From a virus (lineage: Duplodnaviria > Caudoviricetes): a stretch of 58,428 nucleotides of DNA. The notes under the pieces are model-generated. The model was not told where the DNA came from and made no database searches. It saw nothing but the letters and a program-made list of their open reading frames with translations. The DNA is taken from positions 1 through 58,428 of IMG/VR virus record IMGVR_UViG_3300035180_000124. One strand, given 5' to 3'. Made by a program: the position numbers and the translations under genes. Positions 2,022 to 36,876 of this stretch are shown piece by piece (position 1 is the stretch's first letter; each line of letters starts with the position of its first letter).

Positions 2022-2693
2022 TTAGGTTACCTGCTGGCGGTACTGGCCGCTGCGGTAGGAATCTTGGCGCTCCATGCCATCGCCCAGACGTTTAGCCAAA
2101 ATGATGGCGTCTTTAAACTTGTCGTTGTACAGACCGATGATGTCCTGCTCACCCTTCATGTAGGTGTAGGCTTCTATCAACGAGCCGTACAGGAGCACCG
2201 AGTCAAAGTTGTCGCCCAACCACGTTGTCAGCGCCGTAGTGATGGACTCTGGGTAGTAGAAGTAGTGCAGCTCTGCGGAGTACGTGGTATCCGGCGTTGG
2301 GCCAAGGATGAACGAAAGCTCTGTAGTCGGCACAGGCGGTGCACCGGAAGTAGTCGTCGGGCCAAACAGGGCGTAGTACTTGGGCAGGCCCGTACTCGTA
2401 GAGTTGGGGTACGCTTCACGAATGAAGTTCACATCCTTGTTGAGCAAAAATGTGTAATCGCCACCAGCCACGGGGAACACTGCAATCGAATATACGGCCA
2501 AGAAATCATCTGGGCAGGACAGGTATTTGTTGCTAGCTGTCACCGTCCCGGTCACGTTCTTGCGAAGCGATGGGAATTGGATGGTGTTGTAGATGCGCTG
2601 CTCTGCCTGCGTAATGAACGTGTTCATCGCAGTTGTCGGGAACGTATTCTCCGTGTAAGTGGAGACCGCCGTGACTAGCGCACTGTAGTTCAT
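2022..2693 (-). CDS. Putative head-tail adaptor / tail tubular protein
   Basis: Likely start MNYSALV at 2693, overlapping the upstream stop. Contains FITQAEQRI, GPTPD..Y..EL.Y and LLYGSL.EAY.YMK motifs. Confidence 0.65.
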   Translation of the reverse strand: MNYSALVTAVSTYTENTFPTTAMNTFITQAEQRIYNTIQFPSLRKNVTGTVTASNKYLSCPDDFLAVYSIAVFPVAGGDYTFLLNKDVNFIREAYPNSTSTGLPKYYALFGPTTTSGAPPVPTTELSFILGPTPDTTYSAELHYFYYPESITTALTTWLGDNFDSVLLYGSLIEAYTYMKGEQDIIGLYNDKFKDAIILAKRLGDGMERQDSYRSGQYRQQVT

Positions 2694-2956
2694 GCCATCG
2701 GGCCTCGTGCTGTGATACCGCGAGTGGCACAACCATTTCCACGGGTAACAATACCGGAAGTCTTGGTAGGCTCGTTACCAGCGGATTTGCTGATGTTTCC
2801 GACACTGGTGTCGTAAGCATCCAACTTGCTGCGGTTGGGTTCTTTGCCGGGGTTACCGGAAATAGCAACAGCTTTGCCTGACATAGTGTGGGGCTTGGCA
2901 TACAGGATAGCTGGGCCGATCTCTTTGCCCATTTTCTTCATACTTTGGGTTGCCAT
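2690..2956 (-). CDS. Small basic virion-associated protein
   Basis: AAGGAG RBS, Lys/Gly-rich, C-terminal RGxGxAxRG motif. Confidence 0.7.
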   Translation of the reverse strand: MATQSMKKMGKEIGPAILYAKPHTMSGKAVAISGNPGKEPNRSKLDAYDTSVGNISKSAGNEPTKTSGIVTRGNGCATRGITARGPMA

Positions 2957-13102: not shown

Positions 13103-14644
13103 TTAGTAGTATGCGGTCGGGCGACGGGCGTAGCGATTTGGGTCGTCCTGCTCATCAGAGTCTAACGAAATAAACCCCCCTTGGCGATAGCGCAGCAAGG
13201 CTTGGGTAGTCGTGTCCACGTAGTCATCGTTCTCGCCAACGGGAAAAGCGGCGATCTCTTCGATCACTTCCCGTGCCCAGCGTGTGTCTGGTGCCCAGAC
13301 TTTACCAGAGGTGAACAGGTCTGCCACCGCATTAAGCCGCACCATCTTGTCGTTGCCCCGGCTGGGGCTAAATTCCTGCACGGGGATGCCCATCGCCCGC
13401 AGTTCTTGGATCAACGGCCCTCCAGCGGCCTTCTTTTCCACGATAAATGCGTCTGGCTCCCACTCTTTCCAGTGTTTCAGCGCTACTTGCTTGAGTTCTG
13501 GGAACGTCATGCGGTCTTTGAAGGCATCCAGCAGGATTACCTGCGGGCTGTCGCCTTCTTCCTCGTTATAGAACACCCCCCACGTCGTGCAGGCGCTGTA
13601 ATCGGAGGTATTTTTGATTTCGTGGGCCGTATCCCAGCTCTGCAGGATGTAATCGCACTTCGGAGGGGAGTCACTCTCCCATATACGCCAATGTTTGCGT
13701 GAAACCAGCGCGGAGTTCTCGCTCGTGGGCTGCTGCATGTACTGCGCATTCCAATACCGGGGCTCAATACTGGCCTTGGTAGCCTTGAGCGTCTCCAGCG
13801 GCCACTGTTCTGGCCAAAGCGACTTCTCATTGGGCTCGTCCTCGTTGAGGATGGCGGGCAGCTCCACGATTTCCCAAGGAAGTGAGTCTGGGTTCTTCGC
13901 TTGATAGGTCAATAAGCGACCTGTGAGGTCTAAAAGCGACCACCGCGTCATCACGATGATGATCGCCCCACCCGGCATCAAGCGCTGCAAGGGGCCAGTC
14001 TGGAACCAAGACCATGCCGTGTCAAACGCCAGTCGGCTGTTAATCTTTACGTCCTGCTCGGAGTGGGGGTCATCAATAACGAACAGATCAGCACCACGAC
14101 CGGCAAGAGCGCCCCCAACACCGGCGGCGTAATACTGGCCACCCGCAGCAGTAGACCACTTGCCAGCAGCCTTTTGATCTGCTGCCACCCGCGTTTCAGA
14201 AAAGATCGCATGGTAATCCTCAGAGTCGATCAAGTTACGTACCCGCCGCCCAAAATCTTCTGACAGACTGGCAGTATGTGTACCCATGATGATCTTCTTC
14301 TCCGGGTACTTGCCTAAAAAATAGGCAGGAAATAAGTACGAGCTGAACTCGGACTTGCCCATACGCGGCGCGATGTTGATAATCACGCGCTTTTTCTTGC
14401 CTTCAATCACGTCCGTGAATATCTTGGCCAGCTTGCGGTGCTGCGGCCCAATCTTGAATCCGGGGTACACGGCGCTGGCGAATCCCAGCATGTTGTTTTG
14501 CGCCGCCATAAGGGACGCACGTTTCTCGCGGATTTCCAGATCGTCGAACAACTCCATCTTGTCTTTGATGGACATCGTGGGAAGCGCCCGCATGAGCGCT
14601 TCCAGTTCAGCCTTGCTGAGCGTGGTTATTTTGTCAAGATTCAT
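13103..14644 (-). CDS. terL: Terminase large subunit
   Basis: Walker A APRMGKS, GRGADLFVIDDP (Walker B), and nuclease motifs SWDTA, IVEKKA, DDYVD. Probable start MNLDK at 14644. Confidence 0.93.
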   Translation of the reverse strand: MNLDKITTLSKAELEALMRALPTMSIKDKMELFDDLEIREKRASLMAAQNNMLGFASAVYPGFKIGPQHRKLAKIFTDVIEGKKKRVIINIAPRMGKSEFSSYLFPAYFLGKYPEKKIIMGTHTASLSEDFGRRVRNLIDSEDYHAIFSETRVAADQKAAGKWSTAAGGQYYAAGVGGALAGRGADLFVIDDPHSEQDVKINSRLAFDTAWSWFQTGPLQRLMPGGAIIIVMTRWSLLDLTGRLLTYQAKNPDSLPWEIVELPAILNEDEPNEKSLWPEQWPLETLKATKASIEPRYWNAQYMQQPTSENSALVSRKHWRIWESDSPPKCDYILQSWDTAHEIKNTSDYSACTTWGVFYNEEEGDSPQVILLDAFKDRMTFPELKQVALKHWKEWEPDAFIVEKKAAGGPLIQELRAMGIPVQEFSPSRGNDKMVRLNAVADLFTSGKVWAPDTRWAREVIEEIAAFPVGENDDYVDTTTQALLRYRQGGFISLDSDEQDDPNRYARRPTAYY

Positions 14645-15224
14645 GGGCGACTGACGCCGGTACGGCGTCAGAAATATCGAGTACGTCCACCACACCCATG
14701 AACCGGTTGAGCTTTTCCTTGATCCGCGTGTCCAGCTCGCTGTCGGTCAGCTCTTCCTTCTTGATCTCTATCTTGTCTGTGAACAAGCCGATCTCCGTCA
14801 CCTTGCCGAGTAGGCCCAGCGCCTTGAGGCGGATGTTGGCGTTTGTGCTTTTGGTTTCTTCGACCAGTTGGGCGACTACGTAGCCGCGCAGTTCTTTGGC
14901 TTGGTTGACAAACTCCCAGTCGTAGGCGGTCAGCATACCTACAAGATGCTGCACTGCAGCAGGAGTCTTCACATTGGCGATGGCCACTGCGGTGTTCTCT
15001 GGAGGGGCTGCAGAGATGATGTTGGTGAAGGCTGTCTGCGCTGCCTTGGCGTCTAAGGGCTTGGCGATCTCATCGGAGTCCACAGCGCCTAGGTTCTTTA
15101 GCCAGTCGTTGGTGGCAATTTTAGCATCAAGCAGTTGCTCTGGGCTTGCCTTGTCGGCGCTCAGTGCAGCGTGAGATGTGTGCTCATACACCTCAGGGTC
15201 AAAATCTATCAAGTGATCTAACAT
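14634..15224 (-). CDS. Putative terminase small subunit
   Basis: Directly upstream of and overlapping TerL; RLKALGLLGK motif and a 'TDSELD..I' tail. Confidence 0.7.
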   Translation of the reverse strand: MLDHLIDFDPEVYEHTSHAALSADKASPEQLLDAKIATNDWLKNLGAVDSDEIAKPLDAKAAQTAFTNIISAAPPENTAVAIANVKTPAAVQHLVGMLTAYDWEFVNQAKELRGYVVAQLVEETKSTNANIRLKALGLLGKVTEIGLFTDKIEIKKEELTDSELDTRIKEKLNRFMGVVDVLDISDAVPASVAHES

Positions 15225-15240
15225 GCGTAAGCCCTATATC

Positions 15241-15269
15241 TTGCAGCCTCGTTCTGGGTAGTATACACT
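15241..15269 (+). promoter_or_regulatory. Sigma70-type promoter for candidate sRNA
   Basis: TTGCAG-17 bp-TACACT. Confidence 0.6.
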
Positions 15270-15274
15270 TCGCT

Positions 15275-15390
15275 CCGGTGATTGTGCAAGGCGCTCGTGC
15301 TGAGCGTGTTGTCATTTGCTTCTCCTCGTTCAAGTTGATTTGTCATCACTGAACTTTAAGCCTCGTTCCCCGGAGTCGAGGCTTTTTTTT
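15275..15390 (+). ncRNA. Candidate ~115-nt anti-RBS small RNA
   Basis: Bounded by a promoter and an intrinsic terminator. Two internal hairpins flank GUCAUUUGCUUCUCCUC, which is complementary to the RBS+AUG of several early genes. Confidence 0.6.
15358..15390 (+). terminator. Intrinsic terminator
   Basis: AAGCCTCG...CGAGGCTT stem running into an 8-T tract. Confidence 0.8.
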
Positions 15391-15691
15391 GCAAAATTTT
15401 TTTGAGGTGCCTATTTTTTAAGCAAGGGGGTGGGTCTGCTATCTATGCGTTTTGTGCATAAAGTTGTCTAAGGTTTTACAAAGAACTGCTTAAAACTTAT
15501 CAAGTTTTTAATTAATGTGTTGTGCGCGAGCGAAACAGTGTTTAAGGCGGCTATGCGACGCGACGTCATAAAGGGGTCATACCCCCACGGTGGGGGTCGC
15601 CTTATACCACAGATAGGGTCAAAAATACCCCTTCAAGTAAAATTCAGTTGTCGATGCAGTGGGGAACATCTCCACTGCGGGACGTCAACAA

Positions 15692-15709
15692 GTGGGACAG
15701 CTGTCCCAC
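15692..15709. repeat. 18-bp palindrome copy 1 (GTGGGACAGCTGTCCCAC)
   Basis: Perfect palindrome directly before the RBS of the 15723 gene. Confidence 0.9.
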
Positions 15710-15722
15710 CTAGGAGAAACTT

Positions 15723-16127
15723 ATGAAACTCAATGCAATCAATGCCGCTATCACCACCGCCTTCAACGCAATCGAGGCAGGTCAGCGGGCGCATGTCGCC
15801 TTCAAGGCCGCTATCGTTACGTTACGCCCCTTGTTGGTAGGCGAGACACGGGACACGGCCAAGGCCGTGATCGCACCTATGGTGGCCGAGTGCTACGGCG
15901 AGGGCTACGCTGACGGCAAGTGGGCAGACAAGGACGGCGCGGCTAAACGCAACTGCAACCGCATCTTGGCTGAGTTGTTCAATGGTAGCCCTGCTGTCAG
16001 CACCAAGACCCTCGTGAAGCTGCCCAAAGGCACCGTGGCTGCGTTGCAGGCCGCTCTGGCAGGGTTGACCAAGGCTCAGGTCACCGAGGCTCTGGCGCTG
16101 GCAAAAGCTGGCCTGTCGTTCGAGTAA
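15723..16127 (+). CDS. Early hypothetical protein (Ala-rich)
   Basis: AGGAG RBS; flanked by palindrome copies 1 and 2. Confidence 0.8.
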   Translation: MKLNAINAAITTAFNAIEAGQRAHVAFKAAIVTLRPLLVGETRDTAKAVIAPMVAECYGEGYADGKWADKDGAAKRNCNRILAELFNGSPAVSTKTLVKLPKGTVAALQAALAGLTKAQVTEALALAKAGLSFE

Positions 16128-16145
16128 GCGGGACAGCTGTCCCAC
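16128..16145. repeat. 18-bp palindrome copy 2
   Basis: GCGGGACAGCTGTCCCAC immediately after the stop codon. Confidence 0.9.
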
Positions 16146-16263
16146 TGCGTTTCCCCGGCGAGTTTCATGATCGAGGCTTGGCCGGTGTTTCGTTTCGTGT
16201 CTATCGCATCCCCGCAAGGGCGCGGTATGCGTAGTCGTAGGCCTTCACGACTGAAGGGAAAGT

Positions 16264-16281
16264 GTGGGACAGGTGTCCCAC
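16264..16281. repeat. 18-bp palindrome copy 3
   Basis: GTGGGACAGGTGTCCCAC. Confidence 0.9.
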
Positions 16282-16352
16282 TTCTGCCTAAATAATAGGC
16301 AATTGTCGCCCAAATGCCCGGCGGGCGACAATTAGGCAGCTTTTCTGGCCAA

Positions 16353-16623
16353 TAGACTGGTGTACTAAAAAACTACCACCCCGAAACCCGCGCCAATACT
16401 AGCGTTAGGCCAAAGCAGGGCAAAACAGCCAGCTATATATATACTTAAAGAAAAGTATTTATATATAAGAGCAAACGTAAATGTGTACGTACGTATATCC
16501 GTACTACTTACCTACGGGGGGTGTAGGCTATAACCCCAGAATTGCTGGATGTCTTGCCCTGCTCAGCGTAAGTCGTTGATTCCATTGACTTTTCCGGTGG
16601 CAGAAATTTAGTACACCTGTCTA
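16353..16623. repeat. Nested imperfect inverted repeat around AT-rich core (candidate origin)
   Basis: Arms 16353-16386/16591-16623 and 16414-16433/16544-16563 share a centre at ~16488.5 on the palindrome GTACGTAC. Confidence 0.7.
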
Positions 16624-16684
16624 CACACCGGCCAATTTCATAATGTGGAACCAAAATAGATTGTACAATGTGTGCATAGGAGAA

Positions 16685-16702
16685 ATGGGACACCTGTCCC
16701 AC
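16685..16702. repeat. 18-bp palindrome copy 4
   Basis: ATGGGACACCTGTCCCAC. Confidence 0.9.
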
Positions 16703-16706
16703 CATA

Positions 16707-16740
16707 AAACGGTTAGCAGCGTGCCGACTCACGCCGCACT
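16707..16740 (+). promoter_or_regulatory. Leader hairpin element copy A
   Basis: AAACGGTTAGCAGCGTGCCGACTCACGCCGCACT, near-identical to 17671-17704. Confidence 0.65.
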
Positions 16741-16758
16741 AGAAACTAGGAGATAGAC

Positions 16759-16944
16759 ATGACAAGTGTTATTAAAACCGAGCAATTAGCCCGCCTCCGG
16801 GCGCTCCGCGACGACATCGCCAAACGTACCAATCACGACCGAGCAGAGCGCCTCAGAAAACAAAGGGAGGCCGAGACCATCAGCGACTATTGGATGGCCT
16901 ACACCCAGCGCACGACCAAGCGTGCAGGAAGGGGTGCACGATGA
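16759..16944 (+). CDS. Early hypothetical protein
   Basis: AGGAG RBS; ATGA overlap with the next gene. Confidence 0.75.
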   Translation: MTSVIKTEQLARLRALRDDIAKRTNHDRAERLRKQREAETISDYWMAYTQRTTKRAGRGAR

Positions 16945-17180
16945 AAATCAAACCCGAACACCTAGCGCACCTACGTGACGCCATAGCCCAGCACGACACA
17001 GACTTCCATCGCTCACGCTACGCCGCAGCAGGACTAACCACCATGCGCTACCAATGGGACTTAGTGCGCCACGCTGGCCTTATGCCGTGGCTGTGCGACA
17101 CGCTGTACCAATACCTGAACGATACGCATATCCAAACCGCGCTCAACCGCATCGTCAAACCCCTAGGAGAAACCAAATGA
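16941..17180 (+). CDS. Early hypothetical protein
   Basis: Start MKIKPEH at an ATGA overlap; C-terminal YxYLNDTHIxTAL. Confidence 0.75.
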   Translation: MKIKPEHLAHLRDAIAQHDTDFHRSRYAAAGLTTMRYQWDLVRHAGLMPWLCDTLYQYLNDTHIQTALNRIVKPLGETK

Positions 17181-17704: not shown

Positions 17705-17722
17705 TGTAACGAGGAATAGAAA

Positions 17723-19456
17723 ATGACATACGAAACCAACCTGAGCACTGCGCAACGACTCATGACCTGCTTGGAGATGTACTCACGCATCAACCGCTTC
17801 ATGGCGGAGCACAACGCCTTCATGGCCGAGCCAGACGTTTTCAAACTGCGCACTCTGAGCAAAAAAGTGGGCGCGGGCACCGCATCGGTTAAGGAGGATA
17901 CGCACGTCATATGGGTGTACGAGTACTACATGTACCTAGAGAACGACAAGGGCTACAACGGGGAGTCACGTATCCTCGAACTGCGCACAGCCCTGAACGA
18001 CCTCAACACCTTCAGGTTCCCCCGGCCACCGACACAGGCTTACCTAGCAGGGGTGCACCGGGAGCGCATGGAGCGCTTGACTAGCCCGCGTAATGTGGTT
18101 GTCCACTATGCCAGAGCGCTTGCTGGCCGGGAGTGGCACCATCGGGAGCAGAATCGCGGGTACATTCATAATGCTGTGTTCCGTGCATGGGACTGTGCGC
18201 AGCCCGACAGTACCGAGCAGCTCGTGATGGAGTGGCCGCGTGTCAGCAAGCAGGGTGACCACATGATCGCCTATACCCGCGACGAGAAGTACGGCGAGGC
18301 TGACCGCCAACTGACCACATCGGTCGGCAAGTATCTGGCGCGGCACTTCCCCGCGCTTAGCTCCAACGTCATCCGTGACATTGCTGCGCTGTACGTCGAG
18401 GCCGATATCGAGATCACGCACGACCACGCCATGATGATGGAGATTATCGAGAACGGCCCCGGCTCTTGCATGAGCGGCGAGTCGGACGGGTTCTCCGGTT
18501 GTGGCGACCATCACCCCTACGAGGCGTACGACCCGAAGTATGGCTGGCACATGGCGTACATCAAGGAGGGTAACAGTTTCACGGGTCGCGCACTACTCAA
18601 CGACGACAAGTGGGTGCGCACATACCGGGGCAGCAACCGGCAGAGCTACTCGGACACAGACGAGCGACTCAACGCATGGTTGCGTGAGCAGGGGTACAGC
18701 AAGGCGCATGACTGGAAGGGGTACAAGCTGGCACGCATCGACGTGCGCAACGACTGCGGGTTCGTGGCCCCGTACCTAGACGGCGGCAGCAAGGACGTTG
18801 AACTGCACCGCGACCATCTGTTGGTAGTAGGCTCCGGTGACGGCGAGTACGACTGCTGCAACACGGACGGTAACGCAGACGAGCGCAATAGTTGCAGCTG
18901 CGGTTGCTGCGGTAACCGCACGAGCGAGGACGAATTATTCAGTGTCGGTCGGCATGGTGACGAGAGCGTGTGTTTGAACTGCTACGAGAACGACTACACC
19001 ACGGTGTATGGGCGCAGGGGCGAGCAGTATGCGATACCCAACAGTGACGCTATCGAGGCTGACGGCGAGTACTACGACCCCGCGTGGCTGTCCGACAATG
19101 ACATCGTGGAGTTACATGACGGCGACTACACATACCGGGGCAGCGTAACGTGGATCGAGAGCGTGAGTGCGTACTACCCATCCGACTCGGATGACATCTG
19201 CTACACCAAGGCAGGCGATAACGAGATGCGTGACGACTGCGTAGAGCTGGCCGATGGCGAGTGGTGCTTGACCGATGAGGCGTGGATGTGCGAGCACAGC
19301 GGTGACTGGTACGCCGATGACGTTGACTACGTGACGACCAAAGGCGGCAAACGTATCCATCCCGACCATGCCGACGAGTACATCCTAGAGAACGCCGAGC
19401 AGCAAGAGCTGCCCCTTGAGCTAAGTGAGACACCTGTCCCACTGACAACAATCTAA
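17723..19456 (+). CDS. Large early protein with SCM/GRAL/PYLD motifs and Cys-rich acidic C-terminal repeats
   Basis: 577 aa; GPGSCMS, GRALL, RTY, PYLD, then CxCC/CxxC and acidic repeats. Confidence 0.8.
   Translation: MTYETNLSTAQRLMTCLEMYSRINRFMAEHNAFMAEPDVFKLRTLSKKVGAGTASVKEDTHVIWVYEYYMYLENDKGYNGESRILELRTALNDLNTFRFPRPPTQAYLAGVHRERMERLTSPRNVVVHYARALAGREWHHREQNRGYIHNAVFRAWDCAQPDSTEQLVMEWPRVSKQGDHMIAYTRDEKYGEADRQLTTSVGKYLARHFPALSSNVIRDIAALYVEADIEITHDHAMMMEIIENGPGSCMSGESDGFSGCGDHHPYEAYDPKYGWHMAYIKEGNSFTGRALLNDDKWVRTYRGSNRQSYSDTDERLNAWLREQGYSKAHDWKGYKLARIDVRNDCGFVAPYLDGGSKDVELHRDHLLVVGSGDGEYDCCNTDGNADERNSCSCGCCGNRTSEDELFSVGRHGDESVCLNCYENDYTTVYGRRGEQYAIPNSDAIEADGEYYDPAWLSDNDIVELHDGDYTYRGSVTWIESVSAYYPSDSDDICYTKAGDNEMRDDCVELADGEWCLTDEAWMCEHSGDWYADDVDYVTTKGGKRIHPDHADEYILENAEQQELPLELSETPVPLTTI
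19425..19442. repeat. 18-bp palindrome copy 6 (one arm mismatch)
   Basis: GTGAGACACCTGTCCCAC inside the 3' end of the 577-aa gene, just upstream of the peptidase gene. Confidence 0.8.
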
Positions 19457-21804: not shown

Positions 21805-21860
21805 ATTGTACCCCCCCCCTGAAAAGGGGAGAGGGTTCTAGAATCATTCAGGAGAAATAA

Positions 21861-22601
21861 ATGACATTCAAGCTAAGAAAGCGGCACAACCCGCTACCCC
21901 CCGTGCCGTTCATCCACCCCGGCAAACTGGAGATGTTGCTGCACGGGACACCAGACCCTGACCGAAGGGATAAACCGCCCTTATCAGAGGGTGCGATAGA
22001 AGCAAAACGGCTACTCGCCGTAGCACAGCAAGCGTACGTTAAACAACAGGAGAATCAAATGGCCGACATGAAAACAGCACTATCCAAAGTAATCAACGAG
22101 TGGGACAAAGACGCCCCTGCACCAACGGAGTACAAGCAAGACGGGCGCACCACTACGGGTGTCAGTCAAGCCACGTTCGAGTACGTGAGACGCAACCCCG
22201 GTAAGACCAAGGCCGTAGCGATACGCGATCTTGAATTGCAAGGCTACAAGCCAACGTCCACGACTACACTGCTGAGCGCAATGGTGCGGCAGAAGCAAAT
22301 CCTCGTGGACACCGATGGGAAGCTGCGCACAGCCGCCGACCACTACACCCCGGTCAAGTATGTGCCGAGCAGCAAGGCCGCGAAGCCAGTGAAGCCAGTG
22401 AAGCCAGTGAAGCCAGCGCCCAAGCAAGTCAAAGAGGAAGCCCCGCAAGGCTTGGCAGCGTTGTACGTGCAGCCTACCGCAGAACCCGAGCGTGCTGCTG
22501 TACCAAAGCCAACCCCAACGACCGCACAACAAGTGCTTGAGACGCTCAACGTCAAGGAAGCGTACGAGTTGTTCCTAGCGCTGGCCAAGATGTTTGCATA
22601 A
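21861..22601 (+). CDS. Hypothetical protein, possible winged-helix; internal in-frame RBS/start at 22059
   Basis: AGGAG RBS at both 21850 and ~22048; KPV repeats at ~22382-22417. Confidence 0.75.
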   Translation: MTFKLRKRHNPLPPVPFIHPGKLEMLLHGTPDPDRRDKPPLSEGAIEAKRLLAVAQQAYVKQQENQMADMKTALSKVINEWDKDAPAPTEYKQDGRTTTGVSQATFEYVRRNPGKTKAVAIRDLELQGYKPTSTTTLLSAMVRQKQILVDTDGKLRTAADHYTPVKYVPSSKAAKPVKPVKPVKPAPKQVKEEAPQGLAALYVQPTAEPERAAVPKPTPTTAQQVLETLNVKEAYELFLALAKMFA

Positions 22602-22958: not shown

Positions 22959-23134
22959 ACTGCCCCAACTGCAAGACACCGAAGATGCCCGTCACGCTGA
23001 CCCGCGTGAAGGAAGACCATGTGTACCGCCGCCGCATCTGCACGCACTGCGGTGTGCGTATGACCACCGTTGAGATGTACTCCAAGGGCAACCTTGACAT
23101 ACCGATACCTGAAACTAAAAGGAGAAAGAAATGA
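22955..23134 (+). CDS. NrdR-like zinc-ribbon protein
   Basis: MNCPNC...TR...RRRICTHCGVRMTTVE matches the NrdR N-terminal ribbon; no ATP-cone domain. Confidence 0.75.
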   Translation: MNCPNCKTPKMPVTLTRVKEDHVYRRRICTHCGVRMTTVEMYSKGNLDIPIPETKRRKK

Positions 23135-26628: not shown

Positions 26629-28634
26629 GCGCCCCATACGACACAATAATGGCAATTGATTTTGAAACTTTTTGGGACACCAAAAGTAGGTATTCATTAA
26701 AATACATGACCAACGAGGAGTACGTACGTGACGCTAGATTTCATGACTTCGGAGCATGCCTACACGAGTTCGGAACTGACAAGCACACTCAGTGGTATCG
26801 AGGAGGTGCCGAGCTTTCTCGCATCCTATCAACATACGACTGGCGACGAACAGCAATCTTGGCACATAACGCCCAATTCGATGTATCCATCCTCTCTTGG
26901 AGGTACGGGATTAAACCCGCCTTCATCTTTGACACGCTATCAATGGCGCGAGCTTTACGAGGCGTGGAGGTTGGCAACTCCCTCGCCAGACTTGCGGGAG
27001 ATTTTGGTCTTCCCGCCAAGGGGACTGCCGTACACAGTACCGATGGTGTGGCCGAGTTGGACAAAGACTTGGAACTTGAGCTTGCAGACTATTGCAAACA
27101 CGACGTATATCTTTGCGAGCGAATTTTCGAGCGACTTGTTCAAGGCTACCCCAAGTCAGAGCTGAGACTGATCGACATGACGCTCAAGATGTACACGCAA
27201 CCCGTCTTGCAGTTGGACAAGCTCATGCTGGCTAACGCGTTGGAGGAAGAGAAGGAGAAGCGTGAGGAGTTGCTGCAGCGCTTGGGTGTGACGGATGCAG
27301 CGTTGGCCAGCAACGGCCAGTTCGCAGCGCTGTTGGAAGCGGTCGGCATGCCGCCGCCCATGAAGAAAAAGAAACCCACACCCAAGACGCCTAACCCCGT
27401 GGGTATGAACTACGCCTTCGCCAAGACGGACGCCATGTTCCAAGCCATGCTCAACGGAACCAACGAGGATGTGGCTGCGCTGTGTGAGGCACGGCTCAAG
27501 GTCAAGTCCACCACGGAACGCACCAGAGCACAGCGATTCTTGGAGATTGCAGGCCGAGGCACCCTACCGGTACCCCTGAGCTATTACGGCGCAGCAACGG
27601 GCCGCTGGACGGCCAGCAAGGGCAGCGCTATCAACATGCAGAACCTGAAGCGCGGCTCGTTCTTACGCAAGGCCATCATGGCACCGCCGGGGTATCGGCT
27701 TGTGGTGGGGGACTTGTCCCAGATCGAGCCGCGTGTGCTGGCGTGGCTGTCTGACTACGATGAGATGCTCGACATCTTCCGCGCGGGGGGTGATCCGTAT
27801 GCTGCCTTCGGTGCACAGATGTTCAACATCCCCGGCTTGACCAAGGAGAGTCACCCTGACTTGAGGCAGTCAGCCAAGTCAGCGCTGTTGGGTGCGGGGT
27901 ACGGGCTGGGTTGGGCCAGCTTTGCTGCACAACTGCTTGTTGGGTTCCTCGGTGCGCCACCTGTGCGCTACACCAAGGCCGAGGCGCTGCAGTTGGGCGT
28001 GACAAAGGCGTACATCGAGCAGTTCCTGAGCTGGGACGAGAACCTTGTGAAGATGGAAGAGATCGCGCATACCTGCACCATGAAGGAGCTGCTGATCCAC
28101 TGCGTTGCGGCCAAGAAGATCATCGACATATACCGTGCCACTGCGTATCAGGTCGTCTCATTCTGGTCGATGCTGTCGGGGTTGATTCAGACTTCGTTGT
28201 TCGACGGAGAAGAGTTTACTTACAAGTGCCTGACGTTCCGCAAGGAAGAGATCGAACTGCCCAACGGTATGAAGCTGCTGTACCCCAACCTGCGTAAGCA
28301 GCCGAAGAAAGACAGCAAGAAGAACGAGTGGGAATGGGTGTACGGTGAGGACGCTACCAAGCTGTACGCCGGTAAGATTGCGAACAATGTCACGCAAGCG
28401 ACAGCACGGATCGTGATGACTGATGGTATGCTACGGGTGTCAAAAAAATACTTCGTGGCTGGGACTGTTCATGACGAACAGATAGCAGTTGTGCCTGATG
28501 AAGAGGTTGAGTTCGCTAAGACTTGGGTCTTGGCGCAAATGACTATGGAGCCACGGTATCTTCCGGGGATTCCATTAGCCGCTGACGGTGGCGCACATCG
28601 TCGTTATGGACTGGCAAAAGGTAAGGAGAAGTAA
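26625..28634 (+). CDS. DNA polymerase family A with 3'-5' exonuclease
   Basis: Exo I DFET, Exo II AHNAQFD, Exo III YCKHD; TGRW; motif A DLSQIEPR; motif B RQSAKSALLGAGYG; motif C VHDE. Confidence 0.93.
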   Translation: MSAPYDTIMAIDFETFWDTKSRYSLKYMTNEEYVRDARFHDFGACLHEFGTDKHTQWYRGGAELSRILSTYDWRRTAILAHNAQFDVSILSWRYGIKPAFIFDTLSMARALRGVEVGNSLARLAGDFGLPAKGTAVHSTDGVAELDKDLELELADYCKHDVYLCERIFERLVQGYPKSELRLIDMTLKMYTQPVLQLDKLMLANALEEEKEKREELLQRLGVTDAALASNGQFAALLEAVGMPPPMKKKKPTPKTPNPVGMNYAFAKTDAMFQAMLNGTNEDVAALCEARLKVKSTTERTRAQRFLEIAGRGTLPVPLSYYGAATGRWTASKGSAINMQNLKRGSFLRKAIMAPPGYRLVVGDLSQIEPRVLAWLSDYDEMLDIFRAGGDPYAAFGAQMFNIPGLTKESHPDLRQSAKSALLGAGYGLGWASFAAQLLVGFLGAPPVRYTKAEALQLGVTKAYIEQFLSWDENLVKMEEIAHTCTMKELLIHCVAAKKIIDIYRATAYQVVSFWSMLSGLIQTSLFDGEEFTYKCLTFRKEEIELPNGMKLLYPNLRKQPKKDSKKNEWEWVYGEDATKLYAGKIANNVTQATARIVMTDGMLRVSKKYFVAGTVHDEQIAVVPDEEVEFAKTWVLAQMTMEPRYLPGIPLAADGGAHRRYGLAKGKEK

Positions 28635-28955
28635 ATGATGGCAAAAATAAAAGCGATGTTCCCACGTAGGATGCGCGTAGGTAAGAAGCTGTATTCAGTC
28701 GAGGTCGTTGAGGCCATGATCGAGAAGAACTGCGTAGGTCGTACACGCTACGCCGACCGCAATATCCAGATCGCCGCGAAGCACAACAACACCGGGCGCT
28801 TCCTTGCCGGTGCAGAGATTCGTGACACGTTCTGGCACGAGGTGACACACGCCATCCTTGAGGACATGGGACGGCACACACTGAACCGTGACGAGCGATT
28901 CGTTACGGAGTTCGCTAACCGGCTGTCCGCAGCCATTGACTCTGCGAGGTTTTGA
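28635..28955 (+). CDS. Small HExxH metallopeptidase-like protein
   Basis: TFWHEVTHAIL...E motif; AAGGAG RBS. Confidence 0.75.
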   Translation: MMAKIKAMFPRRMRVGKKLYSVEVVEAMIEKNCVGRTRYADRNIQIAAKHNNTGRFLAGAEIRDTFWHEVTHAILEDMGRHTLNRDERFVTEFANRLSAAIDSARF

Positions 28956-30122: not shown

Positions 30123-30137
30123 AAACACGAGAAGCAA

Positions 30138-31697
30138 ATGCAAGTCATCGACAACAAAGCACTACTCTTCAAAACCAGAAACCCCGACAAGTACCATTTA
30201 ATCCCCAAACGTCATATCGTGTCAGAAGATAATGGGACGTTTGAGATAATGGTTTACTGGGGGTTGGAAGAGGTTCAGGTACTACGAAACTTAGGTGTCA
30301 AAGATGTACCTTCGCCTATTACGGGCCGGTACGGTTGGCCGGGGCGCTACACACCCATGTCGCACCAGATGGCGACAGCAGATTTCCTGACCATTCACCG
30401 CAGAGCATTTGTGTTCAGCGAGCCGGGTACAGGCAAGACGTTGAGCGCTTTGTGGGCGGCTGACTACCTGATGAGTATCAAGAAGGTGCGTAGGGTTCTG
30501 ATCCTCTGCCCGCTCTCAATCATGCAGAGCGCTTGGTTAGGGGACTTGAGCAGCAGCGTCATCCACAGGTCTGCCGTTGTAGCGCACCATGCGCAGGCTA
30601 GTCGCCGTATCGAGATGGTGCAGCAGGACTTCGAGTTCGTCATCGCCAACTACGACGGCTTGAACCTGATCGCCAACGAGGTGCGCAACGATGGCCGTTT
30701 CGATCTGGTGATCGTTGACGAAGCCAATGCGTACAAGACCCCCACGACTAAGCGCTTCAAGGCGCTGGCCAGCATCCTGACACCTGAGACACGGCTGTGG
30801 ATGATGACCGGCACACCTGCATCGCAGTCTCCGGCGGATGCGTACGGCTTGGCCAAGCTGGTTAACCCCAACGGCATCCCCCGGTTCTTTACGGCGTGGC
30901 GCGACAAGGTGATGCACAAGGTCACGATGTTCAAGTGGGCGGCAAAGCCTGCGGCCCCACAGCTCGTACACGAGGCGCTACAACCTGCGATACGCTTTAC
31001 CAAGGCCCAGTGCTTGGACTTGCCGCCAGTGCTCACCACGACCCGTTTGGTGCCCATGACGGTGCAGCAAGCGAAGTATTACCACACGCTCAAGGAGCGC
31101 ATGTCGATCCAAGCGGCAGGCGAAACGATCACCGCTGTCAACGCCGCCTCGGGCTTGAGCAAGCTGTTGCAGATAAGTTGCGGCGCTGTGTATACAGACG
31201 ACAAAGATGTGGTGGAGTTCGATGCTGGCCCCCGGCTATCCGTGTTGGAAGAAATCTTGGAAGAGACCGACCGCAAGGTGTTAATCTTCGCCATGTTCCG
31301 CAGCAGTATCGACAGCATCTACAACCACCTGACCAAGAAAGGCTTCAACGTAGAGCTGATCCACGGTGGCATCACCCCGAACAAACGTGCCGATACAATC
31401 CGGCGCTTCCAGAACGAGCAAGACCCCCGCGTGTTGGTGATGCAGCCACAGGCTTCGGCGCACGGGATCACGCTGACCGCAGCCGATACGGTGGTGTTTT
31501 ACGGGCCACTGATGTCGGTCGAGCAATATATTCAGTGCATCGCACGGGCAGATCGCAAGGGTCAGAACTCCGACAAAGTAACAGTTATCCACATCGAGAG
31601 CAGCCCCGTAGAAAAGAAGATGTTCACAGCTTTATCCACAAAGGTTGTGGATAACTTTACTCTGACTCAGATGTTTGAGACAGAAATAAATTCTTAA
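30138..31697 (+). CDS. SNF2-family (SF2) helicase
   Basis: GTGKT, IVDEA, MTGTP, HGITLT and ARADRKGQ motifs. Confidence 0.9.
   Translation: MQVIDNKALLFKTRNPDKYHLIPKRHIVSEDNGTFEIMVYWGLEEVQVLRNLGVKDVPSPITGRYGWPGRYTPMSHQMATADFLTIHRRAFVFSEPGTGKTLSALWAADYLMSIKKVRRVLILCPLSIMQSAWLGDLSSSVIHRSAVVAHHAQASRRIEMVQQDFEFVIANYDGLNLIANEVRNDGRFDLVIVDEANAYKTPTTKRFKALASILTPETRLWMMTGTPASQSPADAYGLAKLVNPNGIPRFFTAWRDKVMHKVTMFKWAAKPAAPQLVHEALQPAIRFTKAQCLDLPPVLTTTRLVPMTVQQAKYYHTLKERMSIQAAGETITAVNAASGLSKLLQISCGAVYTDDKDVVEFDAGPRLSVLEEILEETDRKVLIFAMFRSSIDSIYNHLTKKGFNVELIHGGITPNKRADTIRRFQNEQDPRVLVMQPQASAHGITLTAADTVVFYGPLMSVEQYIQCIARADRKGQNSDKVTVIHIESSPVEKKMFTALSTKVVDNFTLTQMFETEINS
31632..31654. promoter_or_regulatory. Inverted pair of consensus DnaA boxes
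   Basis: TTATCCACA-AAGGT-TGTGGATAA. Confidence 0.6.
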
Positions 31698-33187: not shown

Positions 33188-33194
33188 TTAGTTT

Positions 33195-33317
33195 CGCTGG
33201 GCCGCAGGCAGCGGTCGCATTGCATAGGTCGGGGGGTTTTTTTAAATGTGTTTTTACTCCTCGTTAAAAGGCCTTCACATACCTATGACTGCGTTTCCTG
33301 CCCTGCGTGTCCCAGCG
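33195..33317 (+). ncRNA. Long imperfect hairpin between SSB-like and HTH genes
   Basis: Nested pairs CGCTGGG/CCCAGCG, GCAGG/CCTGC, CGCA/TGCG, CATAGGT/ACCTATG and ATGTG/CACAT. Confidence 0.6.
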
Positions 33318-33327
33318 CCTTAACACT

Positions 33328-33606
33328 ATGGCCTACTCACAAAAAATCATGGACGCTGTTGCGGCGTCACCTAAGACGATGGGCAACAAGCTCGGGCGAT
33401 GGGCCATTCACTTGGACTTCCCCGTGACGAAGATTGCTATCGCTCTGGGTGTTACGCGCCAGACGGTCTACAACTGGTTTGAGGGCAAGGACGTTTTCGT
33501 TGCTTACCAGAACCGTGTCGAACTGCTACTAACAATAATGTCCTCGTCCAAGACGGCGGACGAAGCTTGGAGAAAAATATGCAAAGAATACAACTTAACT
33601 CCGTGA
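33328..33606 (+). CDS. Cro/CI-type HTH transcriptional regulator
   Basis: VTKIAIALGVTRQTVYNWFEG helix-turn-helix. Confidence 0.85.
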   Translation: MAYSQKIMDAVAASPKTMGNKLGRWAIHLDFPVTKIAIALGVTRQTVYNWFEGKDVFVAYQNRVELLLTIMSSSKTADEAWRKICKEYNLTP

Positions 33607-36704: not shown

Positions 36705-36876
36705 GCTGGAACGGGGGCAGGGATTCTTTGTCCCCTGCCTAGACCCCGAAGCAGTAAAGGAAGACGGCCTTAAAAAAGCTGTCTTCCTGCACATGTTCGA
36801 TGCCCACGCTAAGGTGGGCATCCGTAGGGGGCTCATGGGGGTGTGGTTCTACCGGCGCCCTCTTCCACCCGCCTGA
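36673..36876 (+). CDS. Small conserved DNA-binding-like protein
   Basis: YPW..LE.G..FFVP...GVWFYR pattern; last gene of the plus-strand module. Confidence 0.65.
   Translation: MSLVVRYPWTELERGQGFFVPCLDPEAVKEDGLKKAVFLHMFDAHAKVGIRRGLMGVWFYRRPLPPA

Follow-up and report, generated by a model that had tools for sequence, protein, structure and literature searches.

Background

What is known of temporal control in lytic phages concerns, for the most part, promoters, sigma factors, antiterminators and a small number of nucleases. Among the short RNAs of phages, lambda OOP and P22 sar are each transcribed from their own promoter to an intrinsic terminator within a control region, and both overlap, on the opposite strand, the gene that they control. 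The put-type antitermination RNA of HK022 affects RNA polymerase in cis, upstream of terminators, by means of two conserved stem-loops.

The c4 antisense RNA of phages P1 and P7 is described, in passages of a review, as targeting a single gene, ant, within the immunity system of a temperate phage (PMC12197685). Cuckoo RNAs are characterized as containing two to four hairpins, each with CCUCCUCCC in its loop, and stems that are highly variable (PMC4615179). In phage T4, RegB together with ribosomal protein S1 is reported to recognize, in early mRNAs, a GGA that precedes an A-rich stretch (PMC1702504). A 2026 study of bidirectional promoters in Escherichia coli, finally, gives 18, 10 and 23 bp as the common spacings and describes polymerase as unable to engage both orientations simultaneously, the activators of one direction tending to inhibit the other (PMC12825309).

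Here we describe a locus in an IMG/VR virus record (IMGVR_UViG_3300035180_000124) that can be compared with each of these systems. The window, by which we mean the whole stretch of DNA analysed (58,428 nucleotides), comes from an abundant and entirely uncultured group of freshwater (lake) phages, whose anchor protein has 542 relatives in IMG/VR. The sole match in the genome_contigs collection, a 4.9-kb contig from a Phycisphaerales metagenome bin, was not taken as a host assignment. We are confident that positions 15276-15390 of the plus strand represent a real, independently transcribed small RNA gene with a sigma-70-type promoter and a strong intrinsic terminator. The fuller statement, that this gene exists and that its product acts as an anti-Shine-Dalgarno RNA on the early and replication genes of the phage, has in our judgement an even chance of being correct. 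Neither this RNA nor any class-wide anti-Shine-Dalgarno RNA in a lytic phage is described in the literature considered, which comprised listings, abstracts and passages of the review PMC12197685.

Results and discussion

A candidate small RNA gene

An earlier note on this DNA, made from the letters of the sequence, had pointed out that a TTGCAG-17-TACACT promoter and a terminator enclose about 115 nt at 15241-15390, an observation that we confirm. The elements of the locus are as follows.

15241-15246, plus strand: -35-like hexamer TTGCAG of the RNA promoter; its TTG is kept in 78 of 81 sequences (the window and 80 related loci), 17 nt from the -10 hexamer
15264-15269, plus strand: -10-like hexamer TACACT of the RNA promoter, overlapping the -10 hexamer of the late promoter by 2 bp
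15276-15390, plus strand: predicted small RNA of about 115 nt, its 5' end placed from the -10 hexamer
15277-15320, plus strand: stem 1, in which the RNA 5' end is paired with ...AUUUGCU and which holds the inner hairpin GCGCUC/GAGCGU (15291-15307)
15320-15326, plus strand: exposed core UUCUCCU (anti-Shine-Dalgarno), the proposed seed, from conservation and predicted accessibility
15328-15354, plus strand: stem-loop 2 (GUUCA...UGAAC), from the fold and covariation
15360-15390, plus strand: intrinsic terminator, a GC-rich hairpin (15360-15382) followed by eight T (15383-15390)

The promoter-like site, read from the sequence as these two hexamers and a 17-nt spacer, agrees with the sigma-70 consensus at 7/12 positions (counted by eye), and it was absent from the promoter scan because the scan threshold was 9/12. 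Similarly, the terminator was missed by the terminator scan because the loop limit of the scan was 8; its stem, in which GCCTCG (15360-15365) pairs with CGAGGC (15377-15382), is formed in the predicted fold. The RNA from 15277 to 15388 folds at -38 kcal/mol, against -27.3 kcal/mol for shuffled sequences (z = -3.33; 0/200 shuffles as good), and both hairpins named in the earlier note are present in it, the first inside stem 1 and the second within stem-loop 2. Neither strand of the region carries a conserved open reading frame (ORF).

Opposed promoter-like sites at the head of the late operon

The RNA promoter is the mirror twin of a promoter-like site that faces the late operon, whose first gene also provides the synteny anchor for the comparison of relatives.

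15260-15289, minus strand: late-operon promoter-like site, with -35 TTGCAC (15289-15284) and -10 TATACT (15265-15260), both hexamers conserved in relatives
14634-15224, minus strand: gene that opens the late operon, with the large terminase gene directly after it; its 196-aa product has no family match, and it anchors the synteny of the RNA gene

The promoter scan reported this site as TGCACA-17-TATACT (15288-15260, minus strand, 9/12), overlapping the RNA promoter. The overlapping -10 hexamers compose a near-palindrome, AGTGTATACT (AGTGTACACT in many relatives), and each -35 hexamer lies inside the other predicted transcript. Judged from the hexamers, transcription would start at about 15276 for the RNA and about 15253 for the late operon, placing the two divergent starts about 23 bp apart; with starts so placed, the opposed and overlapping -10 hexamers would fit the geometry of bidirectional promoters at a spacing of about 23 bp. 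Because the hexamers of the RNA overlap the late promoter and the late 5' untranslated region, part of the conservation of the RNA promoter could belong to the late strand. An N4-like virion or phage RNA polymerase was also considered for this phage and dropped: for the 3112-aa ORF in question the only matches are LPD38 and two PHROGs without known function, and it has no sequence match in the PDB.

Conservation and covariation

All 80 related IMG/VR loci, these being the best 80 of the 542 relatives by the 196-aa late protein (61-96% identity), share with the window, on the same strand, a promoter, the motif, a pair of upstream stems and a terminator whose T run is 7-9 long. The unit is found as well in a relative at 54% protein identity (33.7 bits, E 8e-8, with the covariance model R1 described below). 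Among the 81 sequences, 78 keep the promoter form TTG-N3-N17-TAYAYT, the -10 hexamer being TACACT in 65, TATACT in 15 and TATATT in one, and 81/81 have a T run 7-9 long after the hairpin. The RNA itself ranges from 76 to 129 nt in relatives: only the linker between the stems is constant, while stems and loops vary freely and may carry inserts as long as about 45 nt.

When all 58 unique RNAs were aligned with plain MAFFT (A1), RNAalifold returned no consensus because the hairpin loops were misaligned, and the covariance model R1 was therefore built from 12 of the 58, all of them short forms from one clade (alignment A2). R1 finds exactly one match per source in 58/58, at the expected place and on the expected strand, with no further match at E <= 1 in 365,889 nt, and one match in each of five near-complete relatives. 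When all 58 sequences are realigned to R1 (A3), a procedure fitted to a model that favours the structure, 93.1% of cells are paired versus 79.0% in shuffles, and both partners have changed at 18 of the 22 pairs. For covariation, this alignment scores 0.428, compared with 0.196 for shuffles (0/500 reach 0.428) and at most 0.099 with partners slid. Changes on both sides occur at 9/10 pairs of helix 1 (91.6% of cells paired, many pairs being G:U), at 5/6 pairs of helix 2 (95.9%) and at 4/6 pairs of helix 3, the terminator. The 1175 stem cells contain 291 G:U or U:G pairs versus 8 A:C or C:A, which marks the plus-strand RNA as the selected molecule; the plus strand also folds better than its complement in 56/58 sequences (means -38.7 versus -29.7 kcal/mol). 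Conservation, covariation and strand-specific G:U pairs thus lend strong backing to the separate plus-strand small RNA gene that the earlier note had proposed.

The same data bear on the reading that the RNA is a by-product of a bidirectional late promoter, either functionless or serving polymerase competition only, with the terminator insulating the early region. The overlapping, near-palindromic -10 hexamers invite such a view, as does the description of bidirectional promoters as engaging polymerase in one orientation at a time (PMC12825309). A by-product would not, however, preserve stem 1 and stem-loop 2 by way of compensatory changes, nor a 36-fold excess of G:U over A:C in its stems, nor an invariant exposed linker, and we give this explanation only a slim chance.

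Searches beyond the group returned little. Region 14600-16200 had no blastn match in 50,697 phage records, and R1 gave no convincing match around the terminase genes of the cultured relatives DSL-LC04, HTVC027P and 023Pt_psg01 (best E 0.27) and only a weak one in the first 50 kb of DSL-LC04 (best E 0.1). No Rfam family reached its gathering score for the window or for the nine relatives examined; the best sub-threshold hits for the window were RF02278 (19.2 bits, gathering 50) and RF02837 (anti-hemB; 18.9 bits, gathering 49.5). The covariance model that we provide represents a new RNA family, absent from Rfam 15.

An exposed anti-Shine-Dalgarno motif

UUCUCCU is the sole well-conserved unpaired stretch of the RNA. 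It is present in 76/81 sequences as a single copy, in the linker between stems 1 and 2, the variable loops being devoid of it. Its mean predicted probability of being unpaired is 0.81, versus 0.32 for the rest of the RNA, and is the higher of the two in 57/57 sequences (57 of the 58 were counted; L006 was skipped). The C-to-U variants of the core, UUUUCCU and UUCUCUU, can be read as still pairing with AGGAGAA by way of G:U, although the same changes would make for a poorer Shine-Dalgarno sequence in the complement. A role as a DNA operator of fixed phase is unlikely for the motif, since its distance from the late -35 hexamer varies from 9 to 56 bp (measured in 51/58 sequences, the pattern skipping 7/58). 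The seed of the earlier note extended further, but its CAUUUGC half is predicted to lie inside stem 1, and the CAU that was meant to pair with AUG is missing in 25/58 unique sequences.

Read on the minus strand, the same sequence is GGAGAAGCAAATG, which could be the start site of a small protein (38 aa, MTTRSARAPC...) or of a late-operon leader peptide. There, an ATG follows a strong Shine-Dalgarno sequence at a spacing of 6 nt, and in the window the ORF runs into the start of the late gene. Against this, the ATG is missing in the 25 sequences just mentioned and opens elsewhere onto ORFs of between 1 and at least 39 codons, whose frames differ and whose peptides are unrelated; the G:U excess indicates the other strand; and the late mRNA would not contain this ATG, because the late promoter lies downstream of it. 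We consider a coding role extremely improbable, and the 38-aa ORF, whose conservation the earlier note had named as evidence against a plus-strand RNA, proves not to be conserved.

Alternatively, the RNA could act in cis as the leader of the rightward early operon, in which case its promoter would be the early promoter and the hairpin with its U run a regulated attenuator. Conditional read-through would then feed the early genes 330 nt downstream, and the CU-rich stretch might mask the ribosome-binding site of the first gene. The RNA does lie upstream of the early genes and in their direction, the consensus scan shows no other plus-strand promoter-like site in 15390-17000, and conserved blocks and palindromes fill the 330-nt spacer. 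Yet the terminator is strong (8-11 GC-rich pairs and 7-9 U) and invariably present, and a constant linker amid freely varying stems is what one expects of a pairing seed rather than of an RNA that takes hold of polymerase. Moreover, the unit stays linked to the late gene and not to the early genes: where the pattern and the promoter occur, a homologue of the 196-aa gene lies divergently within 250 nt at 100/103 loci. At locus L001 the sequence after the terminator has been replaced and a 212-aa ORF converges on the RNA 3' end, an argument that is weak because this ORF has no family match. On balance, a cis-acting leader seems to us quite unlikely.

Match to start regions on the strand of the RNA

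We return to the reading of the linker as a trans-acting seed. AGGAGAA, the complement of UUCUCCU, predominates among the start-site 7-mers of the genes that share the RNA's strand, which we ourselves label 'early' on the basis of that strand and of the replication genes found there. Start-region statistics were drawn from six genomes, namely the window and five chosen long contigs, using heuristic gene calls. GGAGAA occurs in 81/211 start regions on the RNA's strand versus 8/224 on the late strand (Fisher p = 3.6e-21) and, among start regions that bear GGAG, in 81/126 versus 8/51 (p = 2.5e-9). A occupies the first and second positions after GGAG in 74% and 76% of cases on the RNA's strand versus 31% and 31%, and a count of GGAGAA-N3-8-ATG made without gene calls gives 104 on the RNA's strand versus 12. 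UUCUCCU ranks first among the 64 7-mers of the form NN-CUCC-N, with 67 exact own-strand start regions, the runner-up having 10. Duplex energies of -10 kcal/mol or better are reached in 91/211 start regions on the RNA's strand versus 18/224, and energies are better on the RNA's strand in 6/6 genomes; relative to a generic 16S anti-Shine-Dalgarno sequence, the advantage of the seed is -2.3 versus -0.75 kcal/mol (p = 2e-8). Pairing with genes on the RNA's strand is therefore clearly better than with late-strand genes, the comparison on which the earlier note had let its proposal depend.

Sites within the window, of which four had been quoted in the earlier note, include the following.

28624-28637, plus strand: predicted target start region AGGAGAAGTAAATG of gene 28635-28955; one mismatch, which is a G:U pair
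30127-30140, plus strand: predicted target start region of the SNF2-type helicase gene 30138-31697; one mismatch, 12/12 from 30129
21850-21863: quoted match, two mismatches
17712-17725: quoted match, three mismatches
23120-23133, plus strand: predicted target start region AGGAGAAAGAAATG, from the pattern search
15712-15725, plus strand: start region AGGAGAAACTTATG of the first gene to share the strand of the RNA, from the pattern search

A pattern search of the window showed the four quoted matches to be real. With up to three mismatches, AGGAGAAGCAAATG occurs 15 times in the window, compared with a mean of 4.85 and a maximum of 13 in dinucleotide shuffles (0/100 reach 15), a lenient null, since the pattern already combines a Shine-Dalgarno sequence with an ATG; the start-region comparisons given above are fairer. 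The long duplexes of 15-21 nt on which the earlier note had relied are not a conserved feature, and co-variation of the seed with start sites in relatives amounts, beyond the 7-nt core, to a weak trend only. GGAGAAA makes up 25/37 of the GGAGAA sites in genomes whose RNA has UUUCUCC versus 22/44 in those whose RNA has UUCUCC. The UUUCUCC seed is favoured over the UUCUCC seed by 2.2-2.9 kcal/mol in the three genomes that carry the UUUCUCC type, by 0.9-1.1 kcal/mol in the two genomes of the window's type and by -0.4 kcal/mol in the sixth; in the cross matrix, the two genomes with the window's own seed type pair better with a foreign type. Since only about three clades are represented, this comparison is no real test of co-variation, and a 7-nt core containing CUCC will match any strong GGAG site. 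As a whole, then, the interpretation in the earlier note is borne out in part, for the RNA gene and the strand bias but not for the long duplexes.

The GGAGAA signature of the early-type genes could also have another cause, in analogy to recognition by T4 RegB and S1; the distant phage DSL-LC04, in which R1 gives only a weak match, shows a milder bias of this kind (8/28 versus 4/38 start regions). Alternatively, the RNA may be functional without pairing to phage start sites, its exposed UUCUCCU and two stems binding instead to a protein or to a further RNA, such as a host factor, a component of a defence system or mRNAs of the host. The agreement with early start sites would then be a side effect of its likeness to an anti-Shine-Dalgarno sequence. 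A conserved structure and an exposed motif, combined with weak target co-variation beyond 7 nt, would suit such a role. The motif is nevertheless the exact complement of the commonest own-strand start 7-mer (67 versus 10), a signature that is nearly absent from late genes, and we judge this explanation unlikely while granting it some chance.

Proposed mechanism and significance

In the scheme that we prefer, the transcript would fold into three elements (a 5' stem, stem-loop 2 and the hairpin of the terminator), leaving a single-stranded linker of 7-8 nt, UUCUCCU, between stems 1 and 2. This linker would act in trans as an anti-Shine-Dalgarno seed, pairing with the ribosome-binding sites of sequence AGGAGAA that distinguish the early and replication genes of the phage itself; pairing would occlude 30S binding and lower the translation of early genes. 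Because their promoters share overlapping, opposed -10 hexamers, output of the RNA and transcription of the late operon (about 37 kb, structural) would be physically coupled, being either co-activated or mutually exclusive. Sequence analysis establishes the RNA gene, its strand and structure, the exposed motif and the match to own-strand start regions; from these we infer transcription, repression, their timing and any chaperone requirement. The small RNA probably damps or shuts off early-gene translation. If this is true, an RNA that reads a class-specific tag in ribosome-binding sites would add a post-transcriptional, RNA-only switch to the means of temporal control listed at the outset. The system is compact, at about 150 bp, and makes sharp predictions; it is therefore testable in a surrogate host without culturing the phage.

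Comparison with known systems

OOP and sar overlap the genes that they control, whereas the present RNA is intergenic: region 15225-15722 holds no conserved minus-strand gene, and the RNA does not overlap the late mRNA because the predicted start sites diverge. With regard to the put RNA of HK022, two stems precede a terminator at this locus, where stems and loops vary freely and only the linker is constant.

With the cuckoo or CcsR-type RNAs, as these are portrayed in the abstracts and listings considered, and with Betaproteobacteria_toxic_sRNA (RF02278), our RNA shares the display of a constant C/U-rich motif by variable stems. Two to four adjacent hairpins with CCUCCUCCC in each loop, the hallmark of the cuckoo RNAs, are not found in it; instead a single UUCUCCU occupies an inter-stem linker in place of hairpin loops, and the RNA is phage-borne and tied to a late promoter. 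Akin to c4, as depicted in the passages of the review, it is a phage-encoded, structured RNA whose fold exposes a stretch complementary to the surroundings of a phage ribosome-binding site, the blocking of which is here proposed. Unlike in c4, to which it has no sequence relationship, the exposed stretch is an anti-Shine-Dalgarno core that matches a class of genes (81/211 start regions). The bidirectional promoters of bacteria that we compared differ in that, at this locus, one arm leads to a terminated, structured small RNA and the other to an entire structural operon.

With T4 RegB, as outlined in the source cited above, the common logic is that a special Shine-Dalgarno context marks early mRNAs and that the class so marked is inactivated post-transcriptionally, as we propose here. 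RegB is a protein nuclease, whereas the specificity factor proposed for this phage is an RNA and its proposed action is occlusion, with no cleavage implied; a search of the window in six frames for a RegB homologue (REGB_T4, PF10715) gave 0 candidates. It is possible, albeit doubtful, that the RNA is a true counterpart of RegB: a private extension of the Shine-Dalgarno sequence, AGGAGAA, would tag the early and replication genes, one RNA would shut off the whole class, and this RNA would be wired to the master late promoter through the mirror-symmetric -10 hexamers, so that a single choice of polymerase orientation would set late transcription and the translation of early genes alike.

Genomic setting of the control region

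Completeness of the window, a whole IMG/VR virus record, is estimated at 92%. Minus-strand genes run leftward from 15224 and encode a 196-aa protein without a family match, the large terminase, an 847-aa protein and further late proteins, while plus-strand genes span 15723 to 36704 and include those for a family A DNA polymerase, an SNF2-type helicase, a primase/helicase and an exonuclease; a second block of minus-strand genes occupies 36833-58428. The gene blocks diverge around 15225-15722, which is therefore a divergent control region between structural ('late') and replication ('early') genes, labels that we infer. The nearest cultured phages, at no more than 51% large-terminase identity, are Pelagibacter phages HTVC027P and HTVC023P, 023Pt_psg01 and DSL-LC04. 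A 3112-aa ORF (36833-46171, minus strand) has family matches only to LPD38, near its C-terminus, and to two PHROGs of unknown function, and no sequence match in the PDB.

A probable small RNA gene divergent from the late promoter

The sequence reads as the earlier note described it: a promoter-like TTGCAG-17-TACACT, about 115 nt containing two hairpins, and a terminator.

Features of the control region, read from the sequence
15241-15246, plus strand: -35-like TTGCAG
15264-15269, plus strand: -10-like TACACT, after a 17-nt spacer
15291-15307 and 15328-15354, plus strand: the two hairpins named in the earlier note
15360-15382, plus strand: GC hairpin of the terminator, ~115 nt past the promoter
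15383-15390, plus strand: eight T directly after the GC hairpin
15289-15284 and 15265-15260, minus strand: late promoter, TTGCAC and TATACT with an 18-nt spacer, ahead of the late gene

The RNA (15277-15388) folds at -38 kcal/mol (z = -3.33), and none of 200 shuffled sequences is as stable. The output of a simple consensus scan lacks the plus-strand promoter, which has 7 of 12 consensus positions by our own count, and also the terminator, because its loop exceeds the limit of the scan; it reports instead a minus-strand TGCACA-17-TATACT (15288-15260) overlapping the plus-strand promoter.

The late-promoter hexamers are conserved in relatives. The plus and minus -10 hexamers overlap by 2 bp inside a near-palindrome, and each -35 falls within the opposite transcript. 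The predicted start sites, ~15276 (plus) and ~15253 (minus), would be separated by ~23 bp. For bidirectional promoters in E. coli, a study from 2026 gives 18, 10 and 23 bp as the common spacings and reports that the two orientations exclude each other in polymerase binding, so that activation of either direction tends to be inhibitory for the opposite one (PMC12825309). Should the ends of the window adjoin in the phage, the late promoter would head the whole ~37-kb structural operon.

The first late gene lacks a Shine-Dalgarno sequence next to its ATG (GGGCTTACGC ATG), both in the window (15225-15253, minus strand) and in relatives. Its ~29-nt leader is highly conserved, with AACGAGG ~20 nt upstream, and this stretch doubles as the spacer of the RNA promoter on the opposite strand.

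Conservation in relatives

The RNA unit is kept upstream of the 196-aa gene in 80 of 80 relatives, these being the best 80 of 542 IMG/VR matches to the protein (61-96% identity). On the plus strand of the window it consists of TTG-N3, a 17-nt spacer, TACACT or TATACT, a 5' segment that varies (some relatives insert a further hairpin here), then the motif (C)AUUUGCUU(U)CUCCU, a stem-loop, a GC-rich hairpin and 7-9 T. Counting the window, 78 of 81 sequences have TTG, and the -10 hexamer is TACACT in 65, TATACT in 15 and TATATT in one; RNA length ranges over the relatives from 76 to 129 nt. Two pattern scans of IMG/VR, independent of the protein, gave at least 238 new loci. Among the matches listed, 100 of 238 had both the promoter and a divergent 196-aa homologue within 250 nt, 19 the gene only, 3 the promoter only and 116 neither, the last being chance matches. 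It is very likely that the RNA gene itself is real.

The late gene and the RNA gene also occur together on a 4.9-kb contig from a Phycisphaerales metagenome bin (L340, JBIKTI010000531.1), either a binning artefact or a hint about the host.

The 330-nt spacer past the terminator (15391-15690) holds several conserved blocks, in the order A/T tract, AAGGGGGTGGGTCTG, TTGTCTAAGGTTTTACAAA (in another clade the perfect palindrome TGTCTAACGTTAGACA), GAAACAGTGTTTA, a CCCCCACGGTGGGGG hairpin and a TAAAAT-like hexamer ~80 nt ahead of the first early gene. Directly ahead of the ribosome-binding site of that gene lies an 18-bp perfect palindrome, GTGGGACAGCTGTCCCAC (15692-15709), kept in relatives (loci L002-L033) with other sequence, for example GTGAGACAGCTGTCTCAC, GTGACACTGTGTCAC and GTTGCACGGTGCAAC; its covariation makes it a candidate operator or RNA hairpin. 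In the close relative L001 the sequence beyond the terminator is replaced, and a 212-aa ORF (2194-2832, plus strand) without a Pfam match converges on the 3' end of the RNA.

No other clear plus-strand promoter was found ahead of the early genes, as would suit an early-operon leader or attenuator. That role retains some plausibility, but it sits uneasily with a strong, universal terminator, with the linker alone being constant and with the replacement of the downstream region in L001.

Structure and strand of the RNA

For structure work the 81 sequences collapse to 58 unique ones, and all 58 share the same three-stem fold. In 56 of them the plus strand is the more stable of the two strands (mean -38.7 kcal/mol, versus -29.7 for the complement). 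No consensus structure emerged when all 58 were aligned without a model, so a covariance model, R1, was built from 12 short-form sequences (22 pairs). It matches exactly once per source in 58 of 58, at the expected place and strand, with no further match at E ≤ 1 in these 366 kb, and once in each of five near-complete relatives. The unit is present, too, in a relative whose protein is 54% identical (R1 33.7 bits, E 8e-8).

On the R1-based alignment, which is fitted to the model and so favours the structure, 93.1% of stem cells pair (79.0% in shuffles), and 18 of 22 pairs change on both sides. The covariation score of 0.428 is attained by none of 500 shuffles, which give 0.196, and sliding the partners yields no more than 0.099. 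Independently of model fitting, the 1175 stem cells include 291 G:U or U:G versus 8 A:C or C:A; as every G:U is a mismatch on the other strand, it is the plus-strand RNA that is under selection. If the RNA were no more than a functionless by-product of promoter symmetry, this G:U excess and the covarying stems 1 and 2 would go unexplained.

The minus-strand ORF named in the earlier note was rejected: 25 of the 58 unique sequences have no ATG for it, what follows where it is present runs from 1 to at least 39 codons in differing frames with unrelated peptides, and it sits upstream of the late promoter.

R1 also gives a weak match (16.6 bits, E 0.1) in phage DSL-LC04 (L339, OR003939.1; 27974-28052, minus strand), just after the DNA polymerase I gene, with UUUGCUUCC...UCUCCUC ahead of a GC hairpin and seven U; this may be either a chance match or a distant analogue carried in a 3'UTR. 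At 33188-33330 of the window, a candidate long hairpin with the small-RNA CUCCUCGUU at its tip has no R1 match.

The exposed motif and early start regions

UUCUCCU plus one or two bases is predicted to be single-stranded between stems 1 and 2, and the ...AUUUGCU part is paired with the 5' end of the RNA in every fold, largely by G:U. Mean unpaired probability is 0.81 for UUCUCCU versus 0.32 for the rest of the RNA, and higher for the motif in 57 of 57 sequences. The motif is kept in 76 of 81; the exceptions are UUCUCCC (3), UUUUCCU (1) and UUCUCUU (1), the two C-to-U variants retaining pairing with AGGAGAA via G:U. Reading the motif as a DNA operator is a misfit with its variable 9-56-bp spacing.

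The earlier note proposed an RNA antisense to early ribosome-binding sites and start codons. The four matches to start regions that it quoted are real; its long duplexes are not conserved features. Allowing up to 3 mismatches, the 14-mer AGGAGAAGCAAATG has 15 occurrences where 4.85 are expected, under a null that is lenient, the pattern itself being an RBS. With genes called by our own heuristic in the window and five long relatives (six genomes), GGAGAA is present in 81 of 211 start regions on the strand of the RNA versus 8 of 224 on the other (p = 3.6e-21), and, counting GGAG-bearing start regions alone, in 81 of 126 versus 8 of 51 (p = 2.5e-9). Directly after GGAG, the first and second positions hold A at 74% and 76%, versus 31% and 31% on the other strand, and A makes up just 31-43% further into the spacer; where GGAG is absent, the base composition of start regions is much the same for the two strands. 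An AA following GGAG is not known to lengthen the duplex with the usual 16S tail.

In a count free of gene calls, GGAGAA-N3-8-ATG occurs 104 times on the strand of the RNA versus 12, and GGAG followed by a non-A base 98 versus 63 times. UUCUCCU tops the 64 possible NN-CUCC-N heptamers in exact targets (67; runner-up 10), a seed duplex of -10 kcal/mol or lower is available in 91 of 211 versus 18 of 224 start regions, and the advantage of the seed over the generic 16S anti-SD is larger on the strand of the RNA. Seed subtype and start sites co-vary only as a trend, across ~3 clades. DSL-LC04, where R1 is weak (E 0.1), has a milder bias of the same type (8 of 28 versus 4 of 38 start regions). To anti-SD action of the small RNA on the phage's own early genes we would give an even chance.

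Within a 246-aa gene (21861-22601), AGGAGAATCAAATG at 22048-22061 has its ATG in frame and is a candidate for an internal start or for a second target of the seed.

Possibly the RNA instead binds a protein or acts on the host. A GGA-plus-A-rich tag on early mRNAs can serve a nuclease in place of an RNA, as described for T4 RegB/S1 (PMC1702504); the window encodes no RegB homologue.

Relation to known systems

The small RNA is not a member of the P1/P7 c4 RNA or T4 RegB families and falls outside those of bacterial sRNAs with an anti-SD motif. By mechanism its closest counterparts are c4 RNA and these sRNAs, and T4 RegB is closest to it in logic.
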